From IMG/VR virus record IMGVR_UViG_3300025413_001239: DNA of 64,000 nucleotides, one strand, 5' to 3'. Under the pieces are notes generated by a model that ran no database searches, was not told where the DNA came from, and saw nothing but the letters and a program-made list of their open reading frames with translations. Made by a program: the position numbers and the translations under genes. The DNA is from a virus. Its lineage: Duplodnaviria; Caudoviricetes. Below, piece by piece: positions 8,380 to 62,724 of the stretch (positions are counted from its first letter, which is position 1; the number at the start of each line of letters is the position of its first letter).

Positions 8380-9612
8380 ATGTTAAGAGCAATTAAAATA
8401 AGACTTTACCCAAATAAAACTCAACAAAGTTATATTAATAACTTGATGGGTTGTTATCGTAAAGTATATAATCTATCTCTTAATTATAAGATAAACGAAT
8501 ATAACTTAAATGGTGAAAACGCTAATATGAAAAGTATTGGTAATCAATTTCATAATAATTGGACAAAATCAGATGATTACCAATACCTAAATAATCATAA
8601 CACAAAAGTTTTGAAACAAGCAATTATTAATATGCTTGATTCGTATAAAAGATTTTTTGTTAATGGTAATGGTTATCCTAAATTTAAATCAAAACATGAT
8701 AATAAACAATCATGCAGATTTCCATCAGAAGCAATATCTAAACGTAACGATTATTCATCATATAAACTAACACTTATATCACAATTAAAAGATATTAAAT
8801 TTAGTTGTTCTGAAGAATATTCAAAATACTTAAACAAGCATAAAGATAATATTAGGTCTGCAACATTAACCAAAAATAAATCAGGTGAGTATTATTTAAG
8901 TATCTTAATTGATGGAGATTTATTAAAATCATTAAACACACCAAGTAATCAATTTATTGGTATTGATTTAGGTATAAAGGATTTTATTATAACGTCTAAT
9001 GGGGAAAGATTTGAAAATATTAAGATAAAAAGGGGTAATGAAAAAAAGTTAGCTAGACTACATCGTAAGTTATCTAAAAAACAAAAAGGAAGCAAGAATA
9101 AAGAAAAAGCGAGAATTAAGTTAGCTAAATTTAATCATAAACTAACTAATATTAAAGAAGAATATTTACATAAGATAAGTAATCAATTATTAAACGAAAA
9201 TCAAGTTATTGTAATTGAGGACTTAAATGTGAAGGGTATGATGAAAAATCATAATTTAGCAAAATCAATACAAGAATTAAGTCTTTACAATTTTAAGAGT
9301 AAATTATTGTATAAGAGTAATTGGTATAATAGAACAATAATTGAGATAGATAGATTTTATCCTAGTTCAAAGTTATGTTCATCTTGTGGGTATAAGAATA
9401 TTGATTTAGAACTGAGTGATAGGGAATGGACTTGTCCATCATGTAAAACAAAGCATGATAGAGATTTTAATGCTTCTATTAATATTCTAAATGAGGGGGT
9501 AAGGTTATATAATAATATAATACCCATCCGTTGTGGGGAATTAACGCCTTTGGAGAGTAGTCAACAGACACTCAATGAATTAGGAAATCGGGATTTGCAT
9601 AATATTGTGTAA
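8380..9612 (+). CDS. tnpB: TnpB RNA-guided endonuclease
   Basis: N-terminal HTH (AIKIRLYPNKTQ); RuvC-I GIDLGIK, RuvC-II IEDLNVKGM, CSSCG/CPSC zinc finger, RuvC-III DRDFNASINI. Confidence 0.93.
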   Translation: MLRAIKIRLYPNKTQQSYINNLMGCYRKVYNLSLNYKINEYNLNGENANMKSIGNQFHNNWTKSDDYQYLNNHNTKVLKQAIINMLDSYKRFFVNGNGYPKFKSKHDNKQSCRFPSEAISKRNDYSSYKLTLISQLKDIKFSCSEEYSKYLNKHKDNIRSATLTKNKSGEYYLSILIDGDLLKSLNTPSNQFIGIDLGIKDFIITSNGERFENIKIKRGNEKKLARLHRKLSKKQKGSKNKEKARIKLAKFNHKLTNIKEEYLHKISNQLLNENQVIVIEDLNVKGMMKNHNLAKSIQELSLYNFKSKLLYKSNWYNRTIIEIDRFYPSSKLCSSCGYKNIDLELSDREWTCPSCKTKHDRDFNASINILNEGVRLYNNIIPIRCGELTPLESSQQTLNELGNRDLHNIV

Positions 9613-51504: not shown

Positions 51505-52908
51505 ATGGTTGAAACTAAGTCAATAGATAGGTTAGAGTTTTTAGCTCAGAAATTTGATGTATTTGAAACTGATAAAGAAAGTTTGGATGCTAAGATATCT
51601 GGGTTAAAGAGTAATGGGTATTTTATAATACCGTTGACACATGATGAAAAAGTGTTAGCTTTGATTTATACTAAGGAGATTAATGATAATATAAAAAAAT
51701 ACGTTAGTGTTTCTTTAGAGGTATTTTCAGAGATTATTTCTGCGGACCCAAGTGTTAATAAATCATTTGTTCAATGGATGTTAAATATCTTTACAAAATT
51801 TTTATTAAATGGTAAGTATGATAATGCTACTAGATTTGTGATTGAGGATTTACCGTTGGCCAATGAATACATTAAGATATTTGAGGGTAACAAGCGTAAG
51901 AATAAATTTAAGGAATTTTGCGCCGCATCTTATTTAAATAAGCATGTTCAAGACCCAACTGATATTAATCAATATAAATCATTATCACAGTTATTTGATG
52001 CTGTTGACCCATTCATTAAAAAGAATCCAAGTGAGATGGAATCTTTATTAATGAGGTTTGTTAATATGAATCAAGCTATAATTGCGACTAAAGATAGAAA
52101 GTTTACGCTTTTTATTCCATTAAGTCTTGAGGCCTGTGTTGCTTTTAATGGTTATGCTAACTGGTGTACTACGAGACCTGGTAACGGTATGTTTAAAAGT
52201 TATACATCAAATAAGCGACCAGATGGTAAAGATTCAAAATTGTATATAATAATTAACAATAAGTTCTTTAATAATGAATCAAATGAATTATATCAGATTC
52301 ACTTTGAAACTAATCAGATAAAAGATAGAACTAACAGTTCAAATGTTGATATTTTTGAATCGGTTATAAGTCAAAGTGAATCATTATCGAATTACTTTTA
52401 TGATGAATTGATGGGGATGGCTAAGTTAGTTAAAAATGGCTTAGAAAATAACAAGTACTTAGATTATTTGATTAAGTTTGGTTTTTGTGAAAGTCTTTTT
52501 GAGTTTATAGATGGTAATTCTCCAGTGATTAAATTCTTGGGCAATAGTGGAAAAATGGAGATACCTAGATTACCAGATATGAGCAAATTTACCTCATTAG
52601 ACCAACTTATGCTTATTGAGGTAAAATTAAGTGAATTACATCCTTCAATTGGCAAATTAGAGTCATTAGAGATGTTGATATTGACTAATAATAGATTAAA
52701 GTCGTTACCAAGTGAGATTGGTAATTTAAAGAATTTAACATTTTTAAATATTACTGGTAATAAAATTGAATACATACCAGAGGAGATAAAGTATCTTGAT
52801 AAAAGCAACGGTGGCCAATTACTACGTATTGCGATGAAAAAAGATGAAATAGGTGAAGAGAATTATAAGAAGTTAAAAAGGTTGTTACCAACAACTTTAT
52901 TATCATAA
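51505..52908 (+). CDS. Leucine-rich-repeat protein
   Basis: C-terminal LxxLxLxxNxLxxLPxxIGxLxxL repeats; central NWCT motif. Confidence 0.85.
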   Translation: MVETKSIDRLEFLAQKFDVFETDKESLDAKISGLKSNGYFIIPLTHDEKVLALIYTKEINDNIKKYVSVSLEVFSEIISADPSVNKSFVQWMLNIFTKFLLNGKYDNATRFVIEDLPLANEYIKIFEGNKRKNKFKEFCAASYLNKHVQDPTDINQYKSLSQLFDAVDPFIKKNPSEMESLLMRFVNMNQAIIATKDRKFTLFIPLSLEACVAFNGYANWCTTRPGNGMFKSYTSNKRPDGKDSKLYIIINNKFFNNESNELYQIHFETNQIKDRTNSSNVDIFESVISQSESLSNYFYDELMGMAKLVKNGLENNKYLDYLIKFGFCESLFEFIDGNSPVIKFLGNSGKMEIPRLPDMSKFTSLDQLMLIEVKLSELHPSIGKLESLEMLILTNNRLKSLPSEIGNLKNLTFLNITGNKIEYIPEEIKYLDKSNGGQLLRIAMKKDEIGEENYKKLKRLLPTTLLS

Positions 52909-54665: not shown

Positions 54666-55937
54666 TTATTTTTTTGATTTTGTTTTATCAGATTTGATAG
54701 CGATTTCATTCTTATCACTATCAAAGGATATTTTAATTATTTCACCTTCCTTAACGTTACCGCTTAGTATTTCATCGGCAACTTGGTCTTCAACATAGCG
54801 TTGAATAGTTCTTGCTAGTGGTCTAGCACCGTAGTTTTCATCGTAGCCTTCTTTAGCTAAGAACTCAACAGCTTCTTTTTCAATCTCAAGTTTATAACCA
54901 ACTTCTTCAAGTCTTTTTTGAACTTCAGCAACTTCATTATAAATGATTTTGTTGATATCCTCTGGCTTAAGACTATTAAACACGATTGATTCGTCAATAC
55001 GGTTTAAGAATTCTGGTTTAAATTTCTTCTTTAGAGCTTTTTCAATGATGCTACGATTTCTAGCATCTTCACCAGCGATGGTTGTTGCGGTTTCGAATCC
55101 GATTGTTTTTCCAAAGGTATTTAATTCCTTAACACCAACATTAGATGTTAATATAATTAAAGCGTTTTTGAAATTAACTTTACGGCCAAGACCATCTGTT
55201 AATTGTCCTTCATCAAATAGTTGAAGCATAATGTTAAATACGTCATCATGCGCTTTTTCGATTTCATCGAATAGAATTACACAGTGTGGTTTACGTCTAA
55301 CTTTTTCAGTTAGTTGACCACCTTGGTCGTAACCAACATAACCTGGTGGTGGACCAATTAATCGTGATACTGAGTGTTTCTCCATGTATTCACTCATATC
55401 AACCTTTATAAGTGCTTCAACGTCACCATAAACGTGCTCAGCGAGTAGTTTAGCTAAATACGTGTTATGGCTTAAGATACCATTAGTGTAATATCTTCGA
55501 TTAGAACCTTCTTTTAATTCAAGGTCATACATAACCTCCTCATAACCTAAATTAATAACCTCAATAACTTTCGATTCAATTAATTTACCATCATTATCTG
55601 ATACCATTACAAATGACCCAATTTTTAAGTCTTTAACAAATACTTCAGTTAACCCAATTGGTTCAAATGTGGTTTCATTATATTCAGTAACAAATATAAT
55701 ATGATTATCAGCACATTTTAGTTCTTTACCATCAGATAATTTAAGTTGATATACTTCGTAAGGTATTGTTTCATGTAATGCTTCTATATCAACAAATCCA
55801 TCGTCAGTTAAGACTTCGTACTCGCTAATTTTGGTTGTTTTGGTAATCTTTTTTAAAGATTCTAATTCATGTTTATCAAATAATAAAATATTATCTGACC
55901 CATCAACTCTTTTTTTAATTTCTTCTATTCTACCCAT
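54666..55937 (-). CDS. clpC: C-terminal half of split ClpC/ClpB: C-intein (158 aa) plus AAA2 domain
   Basis: LKCADNH, MYDL...NGILSHN|TYLAK; DMSEYMEKHSVSRLIGPPPGYVGY; FKPEFLNRID; YGARPL. Confidence 0.9.
   Translation of the reverse strand: MGRIEEIKKRVDGSDNILLFDKHELESLKKITKTTKISEYEVLTDDGFVDIEALHETIPYEVYQLKLSDGKELKCADNHIIFVTEYNETTFEPIGLTEVFVKDLKIGSFVMVSDNDGKLIESKVIEVINLGYEEVMYDLELKEGSNRRYYTNGILSHNTYLAKLLAEHVYGDVEALIKVDMSEYMEKHSVSRLIGPPPGYVGYDQGGQLTEKVRRKPHCVILFDEIEKAHDDVFNIMLQLFDEGQLTDGLGRKVNFKNALIILTSNVGVKELNTFGKTIGFETATTIAGEDARNRSIIEKALKKKFKPEFLNRIDESIVFNSLKPEDINKIIYNEVAEVQKRLEEVGYKLEIEKEAVEFLAKEGYDENYGARPLARTIQRYVEDQVADEILSGNVKEGEIIKISFDSDKNEIAIKSDKTKSKK
55464..55937 (-). other. C-fragment of split intein
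   Basis: Block B-like ADNH, block F YDL, block G SHN followed by Thr. Confidence 0.88.
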
Positions 55938-56069
55938 TTTATTTTATTTTTAAATTAAGATTCGTAAATTGGCATATATCTTTTCTAAAAGTCGTTTTAT
56001 GTAATGCTAAAGAATAACTTTTAATTACATAAATTAAATCATTTATATTATATATACTTTTTCCATTTT

Positions 56070-56432
56070 TTATAAATTTATTCTATTGATTAATTGAATA
56101 TATGAGTTAATACTTAATTTTTTAGATAGATATTTTTTTATTATTTCTGGATTATTGTATTTTTTTGGATTATCCAAAAACTCAAAAAGAATTTCTAGAA
56201 ATAAATCTTTTTCAATATCACTTTCACTACAACAACTCATAAAATCACCAAATGATGGGATAAAAGTATTAATATCAGTCATTATTATTATTTATATGTT
56301 TTAGTATTTCTTTAATAACATCTACCCATTGATTGGTTTGAGTTATATGTTTAATTTTGTTTTCTGAAAAAGAAGATACTTGTCTAAGACCTTCTTTATC
56401 TGTAATAATAATCTCCATTTTATTTTCCATAT
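56070..56432 (-). CDS. Two small ORFs inserted between the intein halves
   Basis: Preceded by a TATATTTG promoter at ~56445-56452. Confidence 0.5.
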
Positions 56433-56452
56433 TATTTTTTTTTACAAATATA

Positions 56453-57673
56453 CTACTTTTTATTAAGGAAAGCAATACATTTATTTATTATTTCTTGTTT
56501 ATTTCCCCATCGATATTCTGAATCCCAAATTACTAACACTTTATAACCTTCTTCAAGTGCAACATCTAATTTTCGTTTATCTTTATCCCACATTTCTTGT
56601 GCTGTAATGGTTTTTCTAAACGGATGTGGATAATCATCAGCTTTATATTTATTTGGATTTCCATGAAACATATCACCATGAAATTCAATTATCCGTTTAT
56701 TTTTAATATCGGTAAAATCATATAACCAAACACCACCTTCTTTTTTAGTTAATTTAAACTCACTATTATGTGTTGCGAAATGAACTTTATCCCTATCACT
56801 AATATCATATGTTTCTAAAATTTTATAGAACAAATCTTGAGATATTTTAGAATATCCAATAACTATATTACCATTGGTTAATAACGATTTTAACCATTTA
56901 TTTTGTCTTTCAGTAAAACGTTTTTTACCTTCTTCTTCACCATACTTTGCAATGCATTTTTCAAGACTAAAAGTTGACTGATGTTCTGATACATTTTGTT
57001 TTGCATCTTCTTTTGAATAACCTTTATTAACCCAATATTCTATATTGGATGGTATTAATCTAGTTTCAAAATCAACTTGTTTCGCAGCTTCAGTTTGGTT
57101 TTTACTAATTATATCTTTCGCCTCGTTTTCAGAATATCCTTTATTAACCCAGAAATCAGAATTTGTTGGTGTTAAACAAATACGTTTTATATCTTCATCA
57201 GAGTAACCTTTTTCTTTTAACATTTTTTTAGATTTACCATGATAAGTTTTAACACATTTAGATGATTTTTGTTGTTGTTTAGAAATTTCATTAATAGCTT
57301 CTTCTTTAGTGTAACCTTTATTAACCCAATATTCCTCACATAAACGATTCCTTTGTTTTAATTCTTCATTACGTTTATCCAATTCAACCAAAGCGTCTTT
57401 ATCATTCCAACCACGTTCAATCCAATATCCTAATTCTCCCCATTTTTTAGTTTTAAAACCATAATTTTTAACCAACCAACCACGCATTAACGATAACGAA
57501 ACAACACCTTCTTGTTCTTGTAATTTAATCATTAATGATTCCATTTTTTTTTTAATCGTTTCATTATCGTAGTGTATGTTTTTATCTAATTTTAAAACAT
57601 GGTCTTTAAACGTTTCTAAATCTGGAAACACTTCATTCACTTCTTTAATTCCTTTACTTGTTTTTATCTTCAT
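56453..57673 (-). CDS. Free-standing Vsr/PD-(D/E)XK-type homing endonuclease with YW...GY repeats
   Basis: YWVNKGYS repeats; YDF...IIEFHGD.FH...GYKVLVIWDSEY. Confidence 0.8.
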   Translation of the reverse strand: MKIKTSKGIKEVNEVFPDLETFKDHVLKLDKNIHYDNETIKKKMESLMIKLQEQEGVVSLSLMRGWLVKNYGFKTKKWGELGYWIERGWNDKDALVELDKRNEELKQRNRLCEEYWVNKGYTKEEAINEISKQQQKSSKCVKTYHGKSKKMLKEKGYSDEDIKRICLTPTNSDFWVNKGYSENEAKDIISKNQTEAAKQVDFETRLIPSNIEYWVNKGYSKEDAKQNVSEHQSTFSLEKCIAKYGEEEGKKRFTERQNKWLKSLLTNGNIVIGYSKISQDLFYKILETYDISDRDKVHFATHNSEFKLTKKEGGVWLYDFTDIKNKRIIEFHGDMFHGNPNKYKADDYPHPFRKTITAQEMWDKDKRKLDVALEEGYKVLVIWDSEYRWGNKQEIINKCIAFLNKK

Positions 57674-57719
57674 GACATCTATTTTATAATAAATATCATG
57701 AAGTTTTAAAAAGTTCGGA

Positions 57720-59531
57720 CTAATTGGTGTCGGGTACGATATTTTTTATATTAATAATTTTAATCTCACCAGTTAGTTTATTTCTAACTGTTATTTCTGT
57801 ATCACCACAAATACACTTACCAACACCTGTTGGACCTAAAAAGATGAATGTACCAACTGGTTTATTTTTAGGCTTAATACCAATACGATTTCTCTTGATG
57901 GCTTTAACAACTTTAGCAACAGCTTCGTCTTGACCTATGACTTTACCAGTTAACTCCTTATCAAGGGTAAGTAATTTTTTACTTTCTTGGGTTGAGATTT
58001 TAGTTAATGGGATACCAGTCATCATCGATACAACTTCGGATATTTGTTCAACACCAACAATTGTTTCTCTTTTTTCAAGCTTAGTAGTCCAAGCTTTCAT
58101 AGCGGCTTCTAGTTGCTCATTGATTTTGTTTTGTTCATCCCTAATTTTTGCAGCGTCTTCGTATTTTTGTTTGCTAACAACTTCTTTTTTCCTGATGATA
58201 AGTTTGTTTTTCTTATCTTCAAGGTCCTTAATATTCTGTGGTTTTTCAAGACTAATATTAGTTGCAGCACCAGCTTCATCCATAACATCTATGGCCTTAT
58301 CTGGCATTGACCTTTCCATGATGTATCTATCAGAAAGCTTCACACATTCTTCAATAGCTTCGTCAGTATAAACAACGTTATGGTGTTTTTCATACTTTTC
58401 TTTAATATTTTGAAGAATAACCTTAGTTTCTTCGAGGGTTGGTTCCTCAACAAGAACTTGTTGAAATCTTCTTGTTAAAGCACCATCTTTTTCGATGTGC
58501 TCACGATATTCATCAAGGGTTGTTGCGCCGATGATTTGTATTTCACCACGAGCCAATGCTGGTTTAAAGATGTTACTAGCATCTAAGGCACCAGATGCGT
58601 TACCAGCACCAACGATTGTATGTAATTCATCGATGAATAAAATGATATCTGTGTTTGCTTTACATTCTTCAAGAACGGCTTTCATTCTTTCTTCAAATTG
58701 ACCACGATACTTGGTGCCAGCAACAAGAGAAGCTAATTCAAGTGAATAAATCTTTTTATTAGCTATAATTCTAGGTGCGTTACCTTCTTTAATAAGAAGT
58801 GCAAGCCCTTCAACGATTGAGGATTTACCAACACCTGGTTCACCGATGATAACTGGGTTGTTTTTCTTTCTACGAGAAAGAATTTGTGAAATCCTCTTGA
58901 TTTCGTTAGTACGCCCAACTACTGGGTCGATTTCATTTTTTTCTACTGCTTTGCTGATATCTCTACAGAAATTATCCAACACTGGTGTTTTACCACCATC
59001 AGATTTTCTTTTAGATTTTCTAAAACGTTCTGAATCGTTTGTAAAATCATCTTGTACATCTTCATCGTCCATCGGACCGTTTTTAAAGTTTTCTTTACTT
59101 TGCATTATCATTTTTTTAAATGTTACATAATTGACACCGAATTCATTTAATATATCAGAAATCGGTGTTTTAAAGGCTAAAATAGACAATAATAAGTGTC
59201 TTGTGTCGATTACTTTATCATTAAGTTTCTCACATTCACTATCTATTATTTTAAATACATGTTTAGCATCTTCAGAGAAGATTATATTATTACTAAATTT
59301 GACTAGTACTCTTGGTGTTAAATCGCTTCTTAGGTAATCATAAACAGCGATTTGTAATGCACTAATATCAATTTTATTCTTTGTTAGAATTTCTACACAC
59401 TCATTATCGTTATCGTTTAATAGTGATATAACTAAGTGTTCTGGTTTAACTTTATTATCATCAAAGCTTTTAGCTTCTTCATTAGCTTTATTAATAATAA
59501 ATTTAACCTTAGGATATATTTCTCTATTCAT
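57720..59531 (-). CDS. clpC: N-terminal half of split ClpC/ClpB: N-domain, AAA1, M-domain, Walker A2 and a 31-aa N-intein
   Basis: [44 protein letters not shown]; GPTGVGK|CICGDT...*. Confidence 0.92.
57723..57815 (-). other. N-fragment of split intein (31 aa)
   Basis: [10 protein letters not shown] block A directly after the Walker A Lys. Confidence 0.85.
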
Positions 59532-60300: not shown

Positions 60301-62724
60301 ATGAAAAATGGGTTAGATGAACAATATATCGAATTATTAGAGGATATATTAAAAAATGGTATTGAAAAAGAAACCAGAAATGGTAAGGTATTATCTGTTT
60401 TTGGACGTGAAATTAGATATAAATTTAAAGATGGTAAATTTCCACTTATAACTACCAAAAAAATGTACTTTAAGGGTATTGTAACTGAATTACTATGGTT
60501 CTTACAAGGACGTACTGATTTACGTTATTTACTTGAGAACGATTGTAATATTTGGACGGGAGACGCTTATAAGAGATATATTTTTAATTCAGAATGGTAT
60601 CCAATTGCTGGTTCACCTAGTGGATTTATTGGCACTAAATCTGATAGTGATGAAATAATGACACAAGGAATATTCATTGAACGTATTAAAACAGACGATG
60701 AGTTTTCAAGGACATGGGGTGATTTAGGACCTGTGTATGGGTCTGGTTGGCGTAATTGGAAGTTCACAGATAAGTTTACAAATGGAGAACAGATTACTTA
60801 TGTAAATGGAAAGGTAGACCAGATTGCAAACTTAATCGAAGACCTTAAAACAAATCCAGATTCTCGCAGACTTATGGTAAATGCGTGGAATTGTTCAGAG
60901 CTCGACCAAATGGTTTTACCACCATGCTTTACTGAAGATATGATGGTTGCATGTGTGGATGGTTATAGGAAAATATCTGAAATAACCACTAACGATTTGG
61001 TGTTAACTGAAGATTGTTCTTATCAAAAAGTTTATGAACTACATGAAACAATGTATAATGGCGATTTAATTAAATTTAAAGTATTTGGCAATACTAAATA
61101 TATAACATGCACCCCTAATCATCCGTTTTTAATTAAAGATAAAGGTTATATTAGTGCTAATGAAATAATTGAAGATGATTACTTAGCGATACCTATAAAT
61201 AGAAATTCAATTATACCGTCATTTGATACGTTGTTAAAATGCAACCAATATGGTGAAAAATTAGTAACCACAAAATTAGATAATTTTGATTATTGGTTTT
61301 TAATGGGGTATTTTATGGGAGATGGTTGGTTAATAAGTTCAAAAGAAGAGGTTTGTTTTGTAATAAATGACAACCAAACGGATTTAATACTACCTAGATT
61401 AAAAAATATAATAGGTTTAGCTAAATTAAATAATTCTGGTATTAATTGCACAAAATATGTCGGTAAGAAAAAACAAGTTTTTGAAATTTTATCTATGTTT
61501 GGAAAATATGCTGATGGCAAATTTATACCAAAATTTGTTTATGATGCGCCTAAGGAGTACATTGAACAATTTATTGAAGGTTATTTTATGGCCGATGGGT
61601 GTAAAACAAAAGACGGTATAAGTTATAGTACAGTATCTGAAAATATTGCGTATGGGGTACAATTACTATATGCAAAGTTAGGTGTTAAAGTTAGTGTATA
61701 TTTTCAAAATAGACCTAAAAAAAAGGTTATTGAGGGGCGTGAGGTAAACCAAAAAAATACATTTTCAATAAATGTATACAAACAAAAAAATAAAACAAAA
61801 AAATATATTTTAGACACCGACTATTTGTGGGTTAAAATTAAAGAAATTAATAAAATTAATTTTAATGGTTATGTTTATAATATATCGGTTGGTAACAATC
61901 ACACGTATAACGTGTACAATCTAATCAACCATAATTGTCATTATGGATTTCAATGTTATACTAGAGAATTGGGTTTGGAAGAAAGAAGAGAGATTGCTAG
62001 AAATAAATTAAATTCTATAGAATGGGGTGATGTTATTAAATTAGCTCATTACAATGAGACTTATGATAAGTATAATATACCAACCAGAGCATTATCATTG
62101 AAATGGAATCAACGTTCAGTTGATACACCATTAGGTTTGCCATTTAATATAGCATCTTATGGTCTATTGTTAGAGATACTTGCAAAAGAAGTTAACATGG
62201 TACCAGATGAATTGATTGGTGGTCTTGGTGATTGTCATATTTACTTAAACCAAATTGAAGGTGTTAAAGAACAGATTGGAAGAGAATATACAGTTGAAGA
62301 GGGTTTACCTAAAACGATTAAATTAATAGGTTACGGTAAAGAATTGGAATTTTCATTGACAGATAAAAGAGAAATAGAATATTATGGTAAAACCGAAGGT
62401 AGCAATGAAACTTTGTGGAGAACTGAAAAATTTAAAGATAATGAAGTATTCTACCAGACAGAATTTGGATGGGGTGTTTTTCTAAATACTGACACTTTTG
62501 AAACTGTCACATACGATGGAACTGAATGGGGTGGTCAAAAAATAAACATCTCTAAGAGAACTCGTGAACCGTTTCCGTTACCAAGACTTAAGCACATGAA
62601 AACTGATGCTTTCTATAAGTCATTATCTGAAGACCAATCGTTGTATGGACATTTAGATAATAAAGATTTTCAAATTGAGAATTATCAATCACATCCGTCA
62701 ATTAAATTTCCGTTAAGTAACTAA
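60301..62724 (+). CDS. thyA: Thymidylate synthase with cis-intein
   Basis: FPLITTKK, ELLWFLQG, LGPVYG, PDSRR, LPP|C, QRSVD...PFNIASY, GDCHIY. Confidence 0.95.
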   Translation: MKNGLDEQYIELLEDILKNGIEKETRNGKVLSVFGREIRYKFKDGKFPLITTKKMYFKGIVTELLWFLQGRTDLRYLLENDCNIWTGDAYKRYIFNSEWYPIAGSPSGFIGTKSDSDEIMTQGIFIERIKTDDEFSRTWGDLGPVYGSGWRNWKFTDKFTNGEQITYVNGKVDQIANLIEDLKTNPDSRRLMVNAWNCSELDQMVLPPCFTEDMMVACVDGYRKISEITTNDLVLTEDCSYQKVYELHETMYNGDLIKFKVFGNTKYITCTPNHPFLIKDKGYISANEIIEDDYLAIPINRNSIIPSFDTLLKCNQYGEKLVTTKLDNFDYWFLMGYFMGDGWLISSKEEVCFVINDNQTDLILPRLKNIIGLAKLNNSGINCTKYVGKKKQVFEILSMFGKYADGKFIPKFVYDAPKEYIEQFIEGYFMADGCKTKDGISYSTVSENIAYGVQLLYAKLGVKVSVYFQNRPKKKVIEGREVNQKNTFSINVYKQKNKTKKYILDTDYLWVKIKEINKINFNGYVYNISVGNNHTYNVYNLINHNCHYGFQCYTRELGLEERREIARNKLNSIEWGDVIKLAHYNETYDKYNIPTRALSLKWNQRSVDTPLGLPFNIASYGLLLEILAKEVNMVPDELIGGLGDCHIYLNQIEGVKEQIGREYTVEEGLPKTIKLIGYGKELEFSLTDKREIEYYGKTEGSNETLWRTEKFKDNEVFYQTEFGWGVFLNTDTFETVTYDGTEWGGQKINISKRTREPFPLPRLKHMKTDAFYKSLSEDQSLYGHLDNKDFQIENYQSHPSIKFPLSN
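60925..61935 (+). mobile_element. LAGLIDADG intein (337 aa) in thyA
   Basis: CFTED...TPNHPF...GYFMGDG / GYFMADG...VYNISV...NHN|C. Confidence 0.92.

Follow-up and report, generated by a model that had tools for sequence, protein, structure and literature searches.

Organization of the Clp locus

We analyzed a 64,000-nucleotide (nt) stretch of DNA, here called the window, from a large, uncultured lake-water phage (Duplodnaviria; Caudoviricetes; IMG/VR record IMGVR_UViG_3300025413_001239). In this phage a ClpC-type unfoldase is encoded by two minus-strand genes, broken within the second ATP-binding loop, and each half carries one part of an intein at the break (Table 1). A first-pass annotation, made from the letters of the window, had proposed such an arrangement, and its description of the two genes was borne out by the translations of the open reading frames (ORFs): the upstream gene ends in a 31-amino-acid (aa) N-terminal intein part (IntN), and the gene that starts about 1.8 kb downstream opens with a 158-aa C-terminal intein part (IntC) that ends in SHN and is followed by TYLAK. 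The full end of IntC is YYTNGILSHN (RRYYTNGILSHN in the ORF translation), and the next residues are TYLAKLLAEHVY.

The first ORF matched the Pfam families Clp_N, AAA and AAA_lid_9 and the UVR motif, with the Walker A sequence GEPGVGKS in its first AAA+ module (D1). The second matched Intein_splicing/Hint (residues 52 to 158) and then AAA_2 and ClpB_D2-small; besides these two domains, the first of which makes up the remainder of the second module (D2), its extein has a TIGFE loop. When joined, the exteins (572 + 265 aa) give the junction GPTGVGKTYLAKLLAEHVY and a protein of 837 aa, which agrees with the ClpC-sized product with a restored Walker A motif that had been predicted. The N-extein covered positions 4 to 500 of the NCBIfam ClpA model and the C-extein positions 502 to 733, so that nothing is lost at the joint, and the cut falls between the Lys and the Thr of the D2 Walker A motif. 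Once the exteins were joined, the NCBIfam ClpB and ClpA models were both covered end to end. Judged by its domains, the joined protein would be a class I Clp/Hsp100 protein, and it is classed as ClpC-like because of its short, UVR-containing middle domain and the TIGFE loop, the latter a candidate for the ClpP-docking loop (I/V)G(F/L). No ClpP gene was found in the record (148.7 kb; 44% complete by CheckV), and ClpP may be supplied by the host or by the missing part of the phage genome.

The gap between the Clp halves measures 1782 nt (55938-57719) and holds three ORFs, a putative 406-aa nuclease gene and two small ORFs, all absent from the first-pass annotation. In the allele of the window an in-frame stop codon lies 2 codons ahead of the IntC ATG, so that IntC has no upstream extension here.

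Table 1. Features of the fractured Clp locus (window coordinates)
Feature	Position	Strand	Description
Clp N-half ORF	57720-59531	(-)	603 aa; ends FLGPTGVGK, then the 31-aa IntN, then TAG
Clp N-extein, residues 1-572	57816..59531	(-)	Clp_N, D1, middle domain with UVR, start of D2 to GPTGVGK
IntN, 31 aa	57723..57815	(-)	Cys1 at 57813-57815; TAG stop at 57720-57722
Putative homing endonuclease gene, free-standing, intact	56453..57673	(-)	406 aa; identified from homologues, profile and fold
Small ORF, 66 aa from TTG	56275..56475	(-)	Passenger in the inserted cassette
Small ORF, 70 aa	56070..56282	(-)	Passenger in the inserted cassette
IntC-Clp C-half ORF	54666-55937	(-)	423 aa; downstream of the N-half
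IntC, 158 aa	55464..55937	(-)	Hint core at about residues 29-158; block B, F and G residues present
Clp C-extein, residues 159-423 of the ORF, stop included	54666..55463	(-)	Starts at Thr+1 (TYLAKLLAE)

Conserved residues and fold of the intein

All residues of class-1 splicing are in place, namely, Cys1, the His of block B, the Asp of block F, the His-Asn pair of block G and Thr+1. In IntC they lie in CADNH (block B; His79), MYDLEL (block F; Asp138) and GILSHN (block G; His157 and Asn158), and these four residues were invariant in 50 of 50 IntC relatives that were 36 to 90% identical to IntC of the window. Likewise, the Cys1 that follows GVGK was invariant in 18/18 IntN alleles, among which the beta-hairpin motif (T/S)xIxVRNK was also conserved. 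A redox trap formed by Cys1-x-Cys3 (CIC) was considered and dropped, the second Cys not being conserved among alleles (CVVAD, CFLSE, CFTAD).

The best sequence match of IntC among solved structures was CatC, of the consensus atypically split intein Cat (6DSL_B; E = 6.8e-6, in two stretches, including YYTNGI.SH), which together with the Hint domain upholds the proposal of an atypically split intein in a Clp ATPase. The fold was judged on L050, a naturally occurring contiguous allele with 74% identity to the window in the C-half; for modeling, it was aligned with relatives of both the contiguous and the split kind. The resulting model of this intein (predicted local distance difference test score [pLDDT], 82.9; predicted template modeling score [pTM], 0.78) has strands at residues 14-19 and 25-29, equivalent to IntN, a helix at 30-44, a disordered linker at 47-58 and then the rest of the Hint domain. 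The split point of the window, which is also the point of cassette insertion, corresponds to residue ~37-38 of the model, in the helix just before the disordered linker. IntC residues 1-28 form a head specific to the Clp alleles, helical and then disordered in this model. When the model was searched with Foldseek, VidaL (6VGV) came first (E = 3.4e-9; template modeling [TM] score of 0.82 by target), and Cat (6DSL_B) was also matched, at 29% identity. Sixty-eight solved structures were matched at E <= 1e-3, and inteins or intein-like Hint domains made up 50/50 among the matches listed. VidaL is cysteine-less and has an IntN of about 16 aa.

Recurrence of the split and alleles at the same site

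A scan of IMG/VR with the Clp C-half yielded 80 loci, which were classified by BLAST with the three window proteins. About 50 of the related contigs carry a one-piece Clp gene (~835-845 aa) that is 66 to 78% identical to both window halves (66 to 73% for the N-extein and 68 to 78% for the C-extein). In these one-piece genes the junction reads GPTGVGKT(Y/L)LAKLLAE. The first-pass annotation had called for a search for unsplit homologues, and these genes carry the predicted spliced junction, its last residue aside: GPTGVGKTYLAKLLAEHVF, present in eight of them, equals the predicted spliced sequence of the window save for that residue, which is Y or F among the ~50 genes.

At least 15 other contigs, which come from different metagenomes, also have the D2 split with a nuclease of the same family between the halves; their nucleases are 41 to 92% identical to that of the window. 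On a 384-kb ENA contig, whose nuclease homologue is 62% identical, the Clp N-half, the nuclease and the IntC-Clp C-half follow in the same order, and the neighbors, a KTSC gene and a thymidylate synthase gene, are the same as well. Because the arrangement recurs on independent, diverged contigs, it is not an assembly artifact. The record is itself a metagenomic contig, and the first-pass annotation had raised the possibility that the stop codon and the intervening DNA were misassembled; with the same arrangement on many independent ENA and IMG/VR contigs of diverged sequence, including contigs of 362 and 384 kb, an assembly error is hardly credible.

Two further alleles occupy the same D2 site. 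In L055 (5776-6369, plus strand) the halves remain split but are separated by a spacer of only 36 nt that holds no endonuclease gene, and in L050 (5917-6435, plus strand) a contiguous 173-aa mini-intein lies within a single 1019-aa ORF, again with no endonuclease. The occurrence at one site of intein-less, contiguous, split-with-nuclease and split-without-nuclease forms supports a model in which a free-standing endonuclease gene splits an intein, and L050 lends itself to direct comparison with the split form.

The second Walker A loop is not the only one affected. In three loci (L007, L010 and L017) Clp is split at both Walker A loops and thus comes in three pieces; in these, and also in protein P0129, a second atypically split intein of the same family sits at GK|T of the D1 Walker A motif, and the middle fragment has an IntC at its start and an IntN at its end. 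The D1 and D2 intein pairs of such three-piece proteins would have to be orthogonal. Three other loci (L033, L043 and L046) are split at D1 only, and five (L025, L026, L034, L011 and L012) carry a contiguous intein of ~360 aa at D1.

Split alleles also differ at the ends that flank the gap. IntN tails that end in (D/N)TN or DAN pair with nucleases 66 to 92% identical to that of the window, and tails that end in RIKH or KIKH, as well as the others, pair with nucleases 41 to 64% identical. From this covariation of IntN tail and nuclease type it would seem that the 3' end and the stop codon of the upstream ORF come with the cassette. On the other side of the gap, some IntCs have an additional domain of ~60-100 aa at the N terminus (MKKEIKLNETYxLDLGS...YELFEMNGF; L001:6249-6536, L008:5821-6003 and L009:5794-5991), and unrelated N-terminal extensions of 120 to 140 aa are found on the IntCs of P0124, L016 and L006. 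Such extra domains would be excised together with the intein.

The cassette between the halves

The 406-aa protein has 455 metagenomic homologues, many of them 60 to 92% identical over the full length. Its N-terminal part contains three (Y/F)W(V/I)NKG(Y/F)S..E repeats, to which no Pfam NUMOD model matched, and its C-terminal part (residues ~297-390) is a putative Vsr-like nuclease domain of the EDxHD type. Searched as a single sequence, the protein had no match in Pfam, NCBIfam or the PDB. A profile of the nuclease family picked the Vsr entries 1ODG, 1VSR and 1CW0 (E = 0.37 to 0.48), and in the alignment the nuclease yDF...iiEfdGdmyH faces Vsr PDF...VIFTHGCFWH, so that the catalytic Asp and His of the two coincide and a Glu falls at the position of Vsr Phe62. 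Residues E305, D319, E330 and H337 were invariant in an alignment of 27 nuclease homologues. The top Foldseek matches of an AlphaFold (AF2) model of the protein (pLDDT, 84) were the Vsr structures 1CW0 and 1VSR (probability 1.00, E = 0.02), and the catalytic domain of I-Bth0305I (3R3P) was matched with a probability of 0.97, TM scores of 0.60 to 0.62 by target and 23 to 24% identity. The extra Glu at the Phe62 position has been reported for Vsr-like homing endonucleases that are encoded within fractured genes (PMC2677866 and PMC3239194). From the profile and the modeled fold we assign the 406-aa ORF, with moderate confidence, as a putative Vsr-like (EDxHD) homing endonuclease. A second ORF with the same Vsr-like nuclease domain (202 aa; E = 6e-15 to the profile) is found in the same record (G000:C1:132023-132229, minus strand), ~62 kb past the end of the window.

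Of the two small ORFs, the one of 66 aa more likely starts at an internal ATG (MENKMEIII) than at the listed TTG; it had no Pfam match and no homologue within the 80 related loci. The one of 70 aa is 80% identical to an ORF in the same position in L004 and also had no match in Pfam.

The makeup of the gap bears on whether the two halves might be reunited before or during translation, by a self-splicing intron that carries the nuclease gene or by ribosome bypass, with the intein then splicing in cis. Vsr-like endonuclease genes do occur in group I introns too (PMC2677866 and PMC3239194), and the contiguous allele of L050 is what the product would look like. However, no Rfam family, intron or other, was matched at E <= 1 in 55800-57850, and the gap spans 1782 nt with three ORFs. 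Moreover, IntN ends in a stop codon, IntC starts at an ATG of its own that closely follows an in-frame stop, and the flanks of the gap vary among alleles, including the N-terminal domains fused to IntC, unlike conserved intron ends. Repair at the level of RNA or of the ribosome thus seems very improbable to us.

Proposed mechanism

We put at roughly 0.8 the probability that the locus is a fractured clpC-like phage gene, in which a split class-1 mini-intein interrupts the D2 Walker A motif, the halves are joined by trans-splicing and a cassette with a Vsr-like nuclease stands between them. The starting state would have been a contiguous mini-intein like that of L050, located in the D2 P-loop between Lys572 and Thr, in line with the model of Dassa et al. 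(PMC2677866). A mobile cassette, consisting of the Vsr-like endonuclease gene and the two small ORFs, would have inserted about 30 codons into the intein gene and given the upstream part a stop codon, with the downstream part having a start codon of its own. Two proteins would then be made, Clp(1-572)-IntN (31 aa) and IntC (158 aa)-Clp(573-837). IntN would bring the first two beta-hairpin strands and dock into the incomplete Hint fold of IntC, and formation of a thioester at Cys1, attack by Thr+1 and cyclization of Asn158 would yield Clp at its full 837 aa, the native loop GPTGVGKTYLAK restored. Since D2 would be unable to bind ATP before splicing, splicing would be required for a working hexamer. 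The endonuclease would probably cut alleles that lack the cassette and in this way spread it by homing.

Several points weigh against this proposal. Trans-splicing is a prediction from the sequence, and we infer it, like the activity and the target of the nuclease. The Thr of the block B motif TxxH is replaced by Ala (CADNH), as it is family-wide, including in Cat, which has KCSDNH at this place, and Thr+1 is a weaker nucleophile than Cys. The E-values behind the nuclease assignment are weak (0.02 to 0.4), if mutually agreeing. Promoter motifs of the Bacteroidota type (TTTG-N17-21-TAnnTTTG) occur 39 times in the window against 5.3 expected (window positions 2230-49273, mostly on the plus strand and usually just upstream of ORFs), but none was matched in the Clp locus (54.5-59.8 kb). 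Finally, the ratios of nonsynonymous to synonymous substitution rates (dN/dS) are rough (IntC core, 0.22; IntN, 0.39; flanking exteins, 0.26 and 0.19; pairwise NG86, 18 split alleles), with dS close to saturation and pairs that are not independent. We take them to indicate, as a qualitative point only, that purifying selection acts on the intein parts as it does on the host protein.

These ratios also bear on the possibility that the split intein is dead, the cassette having inactivated clp or the halves working, or idling, separately and unjoined. Selfish insertions can destroy genes, and one-piece alleles are the majority among the relatives, so that the lineage does not depend on the split form. 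On the other hand, the Clp halves and the two intein parts are all intact, even alleles that share only 50 to 60% identity have the same catalytic residues, dN/dS in the intein parts is as low as in the exteins, and in L055 the split persists without a nuclease. A D2 module cut within its P-loop could not bind ATP. In a possibly related lineage, made up of large aquatic phages with mainly Bacteroidota hosts and with 25 genomes identified, the widely shared genes include a ClpA-type ATPase, found in 24 genomes (PMC12619734, which makes no mention of inteins). We regard a dead intein as unlikely, and joining of the halves by trans-splicing as the better account of the locus.

Comparison with known systems

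In its anatomy the Clp locus has the layout of the "fractured genes" of Dassa et al. 2009 (PMC2677866): two ORFs on the same strand, each with a split-intein part, a Vsr-like endonuclease gene between them, a phage context and joining that was inferred in that case as well. The hosts named there include DnaE, NrdA, NrdJ, IMPDH, DNA ligase and terminase, and the Clp cassette differs in carrying two extra small ORFs. A chaperone or unfoldase gene, beyond the usual replication and packaging targets, can also stay in pieces.

The intein itself is, by its sequence features, an atypically split intein of the AceL-TerL/Cat type, with an IntN of less than ~40 aa and an IntC of more than 100 aa. Like AceL-TerL, GOS-TerL and Cat, it is naturally split near the N terminus, has Cys1 and comes from phage or metagenomic DNA, and it shares with the Cat type the motifs KC(A/S)DNH and YYTNGI(L/V)SH. 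Inteins of this type have an IntN of 25 to 37 aa and an IntC of ~104-115 aa, and AceL-TerL, GOS-TerL and Cat trans-splice in vitro (Thiel 2014, Bachmann & Mootz 2015 and Stevens 2018, summarized in PMC11766414). The Clp intein differs from the Cat type in its host, a Clp/Hsp100 protein and not a terminase, in its GK|T site and in having Thr+1 instead of Cys+1; compared with AceL-TerL and Cat, its IntC has an extra head of ~28 aa. VidaL (6VGV) and PolB16 OarG (PMC10189870; 8CPN/8CPO) are, like the Clp intein, naturally split with a short IntN, but they sit in host proteins other than Clp. PolB16 has a 15-aa IntN and Ser1/Ser+1 (PMC10189870), whereas the Clp intein has Cys1/Thr+1 and is split later, after the second beta-hairpin.

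The 406-aa protein resembles the I-Bth0305I/EDxHD family (Taylor et al. 2011, PMC3239194; 3R3P) in combining N-terminal repeats of a putative DNA-binding motif with a C-terminal Vsr-like nuclease domain, and the two share the conserved Asp and His and the extra Glu at the position of Vsr Phe62. It differs in that its N-terminal region is much longer (~290 aa) and in that it gave no significant sequence match to 3R3P.

Both atypically split inteins and genes fractured around a Vsr-like endonuclease gene are already in the literature, and the locus would not surprise an intein specialist. For the Clp ATPase host, no paper describing an intein was found in a limited literature search that left many journals uncovered; the fractured-genes paper contained none of the words "Clp," "chaperone" and "ATPase" in a text search (PMC2677866), and a 2015 intein census mentioned "Clp" only as the ClpP protease (text search). 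The first-pass annotation had considered both the host and the split unusual. No published case of the former was found in that limited search; the split belongs to a large family and to a layout that is in print (PMC2677866) and so is less unusual than the annotation implied. It had also held short N-inteins to be rare. Few natural ones have been characterized, and 31 aa is not exceptionally short next to AceL-TerL (25 aa), Cat (30 aa) and PolB16 (15 aa) (PMC11766414 and PMC10189870). A short IntN can be synthesized, for which reason natural split inteins of this kind are sought as tools; the Clp intein, with Cys1/Thr+1 and a 31-aa IntN, comes in dozens of diverged natural alleles.

The wider intein family

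An exhaustive HMMER search with IntC among 1.84 billion cluster representatives returned 705 proteins at E <= 1e-3, 307 of them at E <= 1e-10. The junction motif, located by regular expression, was found in 144 of the best 150 relatives. In 123/144 the first HN junction fell within the first 170 residues, a position of IntC at or near the protein N terminus that suggests split forms. In the remaining 21/144 it lay further in, and 14 of these 21 internal cases could be excised as contiguous inteins, from GK|C to SHN, the contiguous members reading RQxGK|C...SHN|T. The +1 residue was Thr in 106 and Ser in 38 of the 144.

Hosts were assigned by Pfam matches of the C-exteins of 136 relatives. T4-type terminase large subunits accounted for 58 and DnaB-like helicases for 20, followed by Clp D2 (6), ABC ATPases (4), Clp D1 (AAA_lid_9; 3) and other AAA proteins; the family also splits ClpX-like ATPases at Walker A. 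By these assignments Clp is one of the less common hosts of a large intein family; the nearest members examined sit mostly at the Walker A GK|T/S of phage P-loop ATPases. Inteins are known to favor P-loops (PMC4760082). We suggest tentatively, at somewhat short of even odds, that these relatives belong to an extensive radiation, not yet described as such, in which atypically split inteins target Walker A GK|T/S in terminase large subunits, DnaB-like helicases, both Clp modules, ClpX-like and ABC ATPases and clamp-loader proteins, with contiguous, split and nuclease-free alleles and the three-piece Clp proteins. If so, the radiation would offer a set of mutually orthogonal short-IntN pairs as well as a natural system in which to follow how a free-standing endonuclease splits an intein.

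Phage host and neighboring genes

Judging by the promoter motifs described above, the phage probably infects a host of the Bacteroidota type; a scan for sigma-70-type promoters did no better than shuffles. Next to the Clp locus, the thymidylate synthase gene (60301-62724, plus strand; 807 aa) is interrupted by an intein of full size, which includes a LAGLIDADG endonuclease domain and lies at the active-site cysteine LPPC|H (VLPP|CFTEDMM...NLINHN|CHYGFQ). In L001, ThyA is 380 aa long and has no intein match in Pfam, and in L002, ThyA was called as two ORFs. Elsewhere in the window, a 410-aa ORF (8380-9612, plus strand) matched the PHROG transposase phrog_506 (E = 8e-112) and is possibly an insertion-sequence element, and a 467-aa protein (51505-52908, plus strand) carries C-terminal leucine-rich repeats, which are unusual in a phage.

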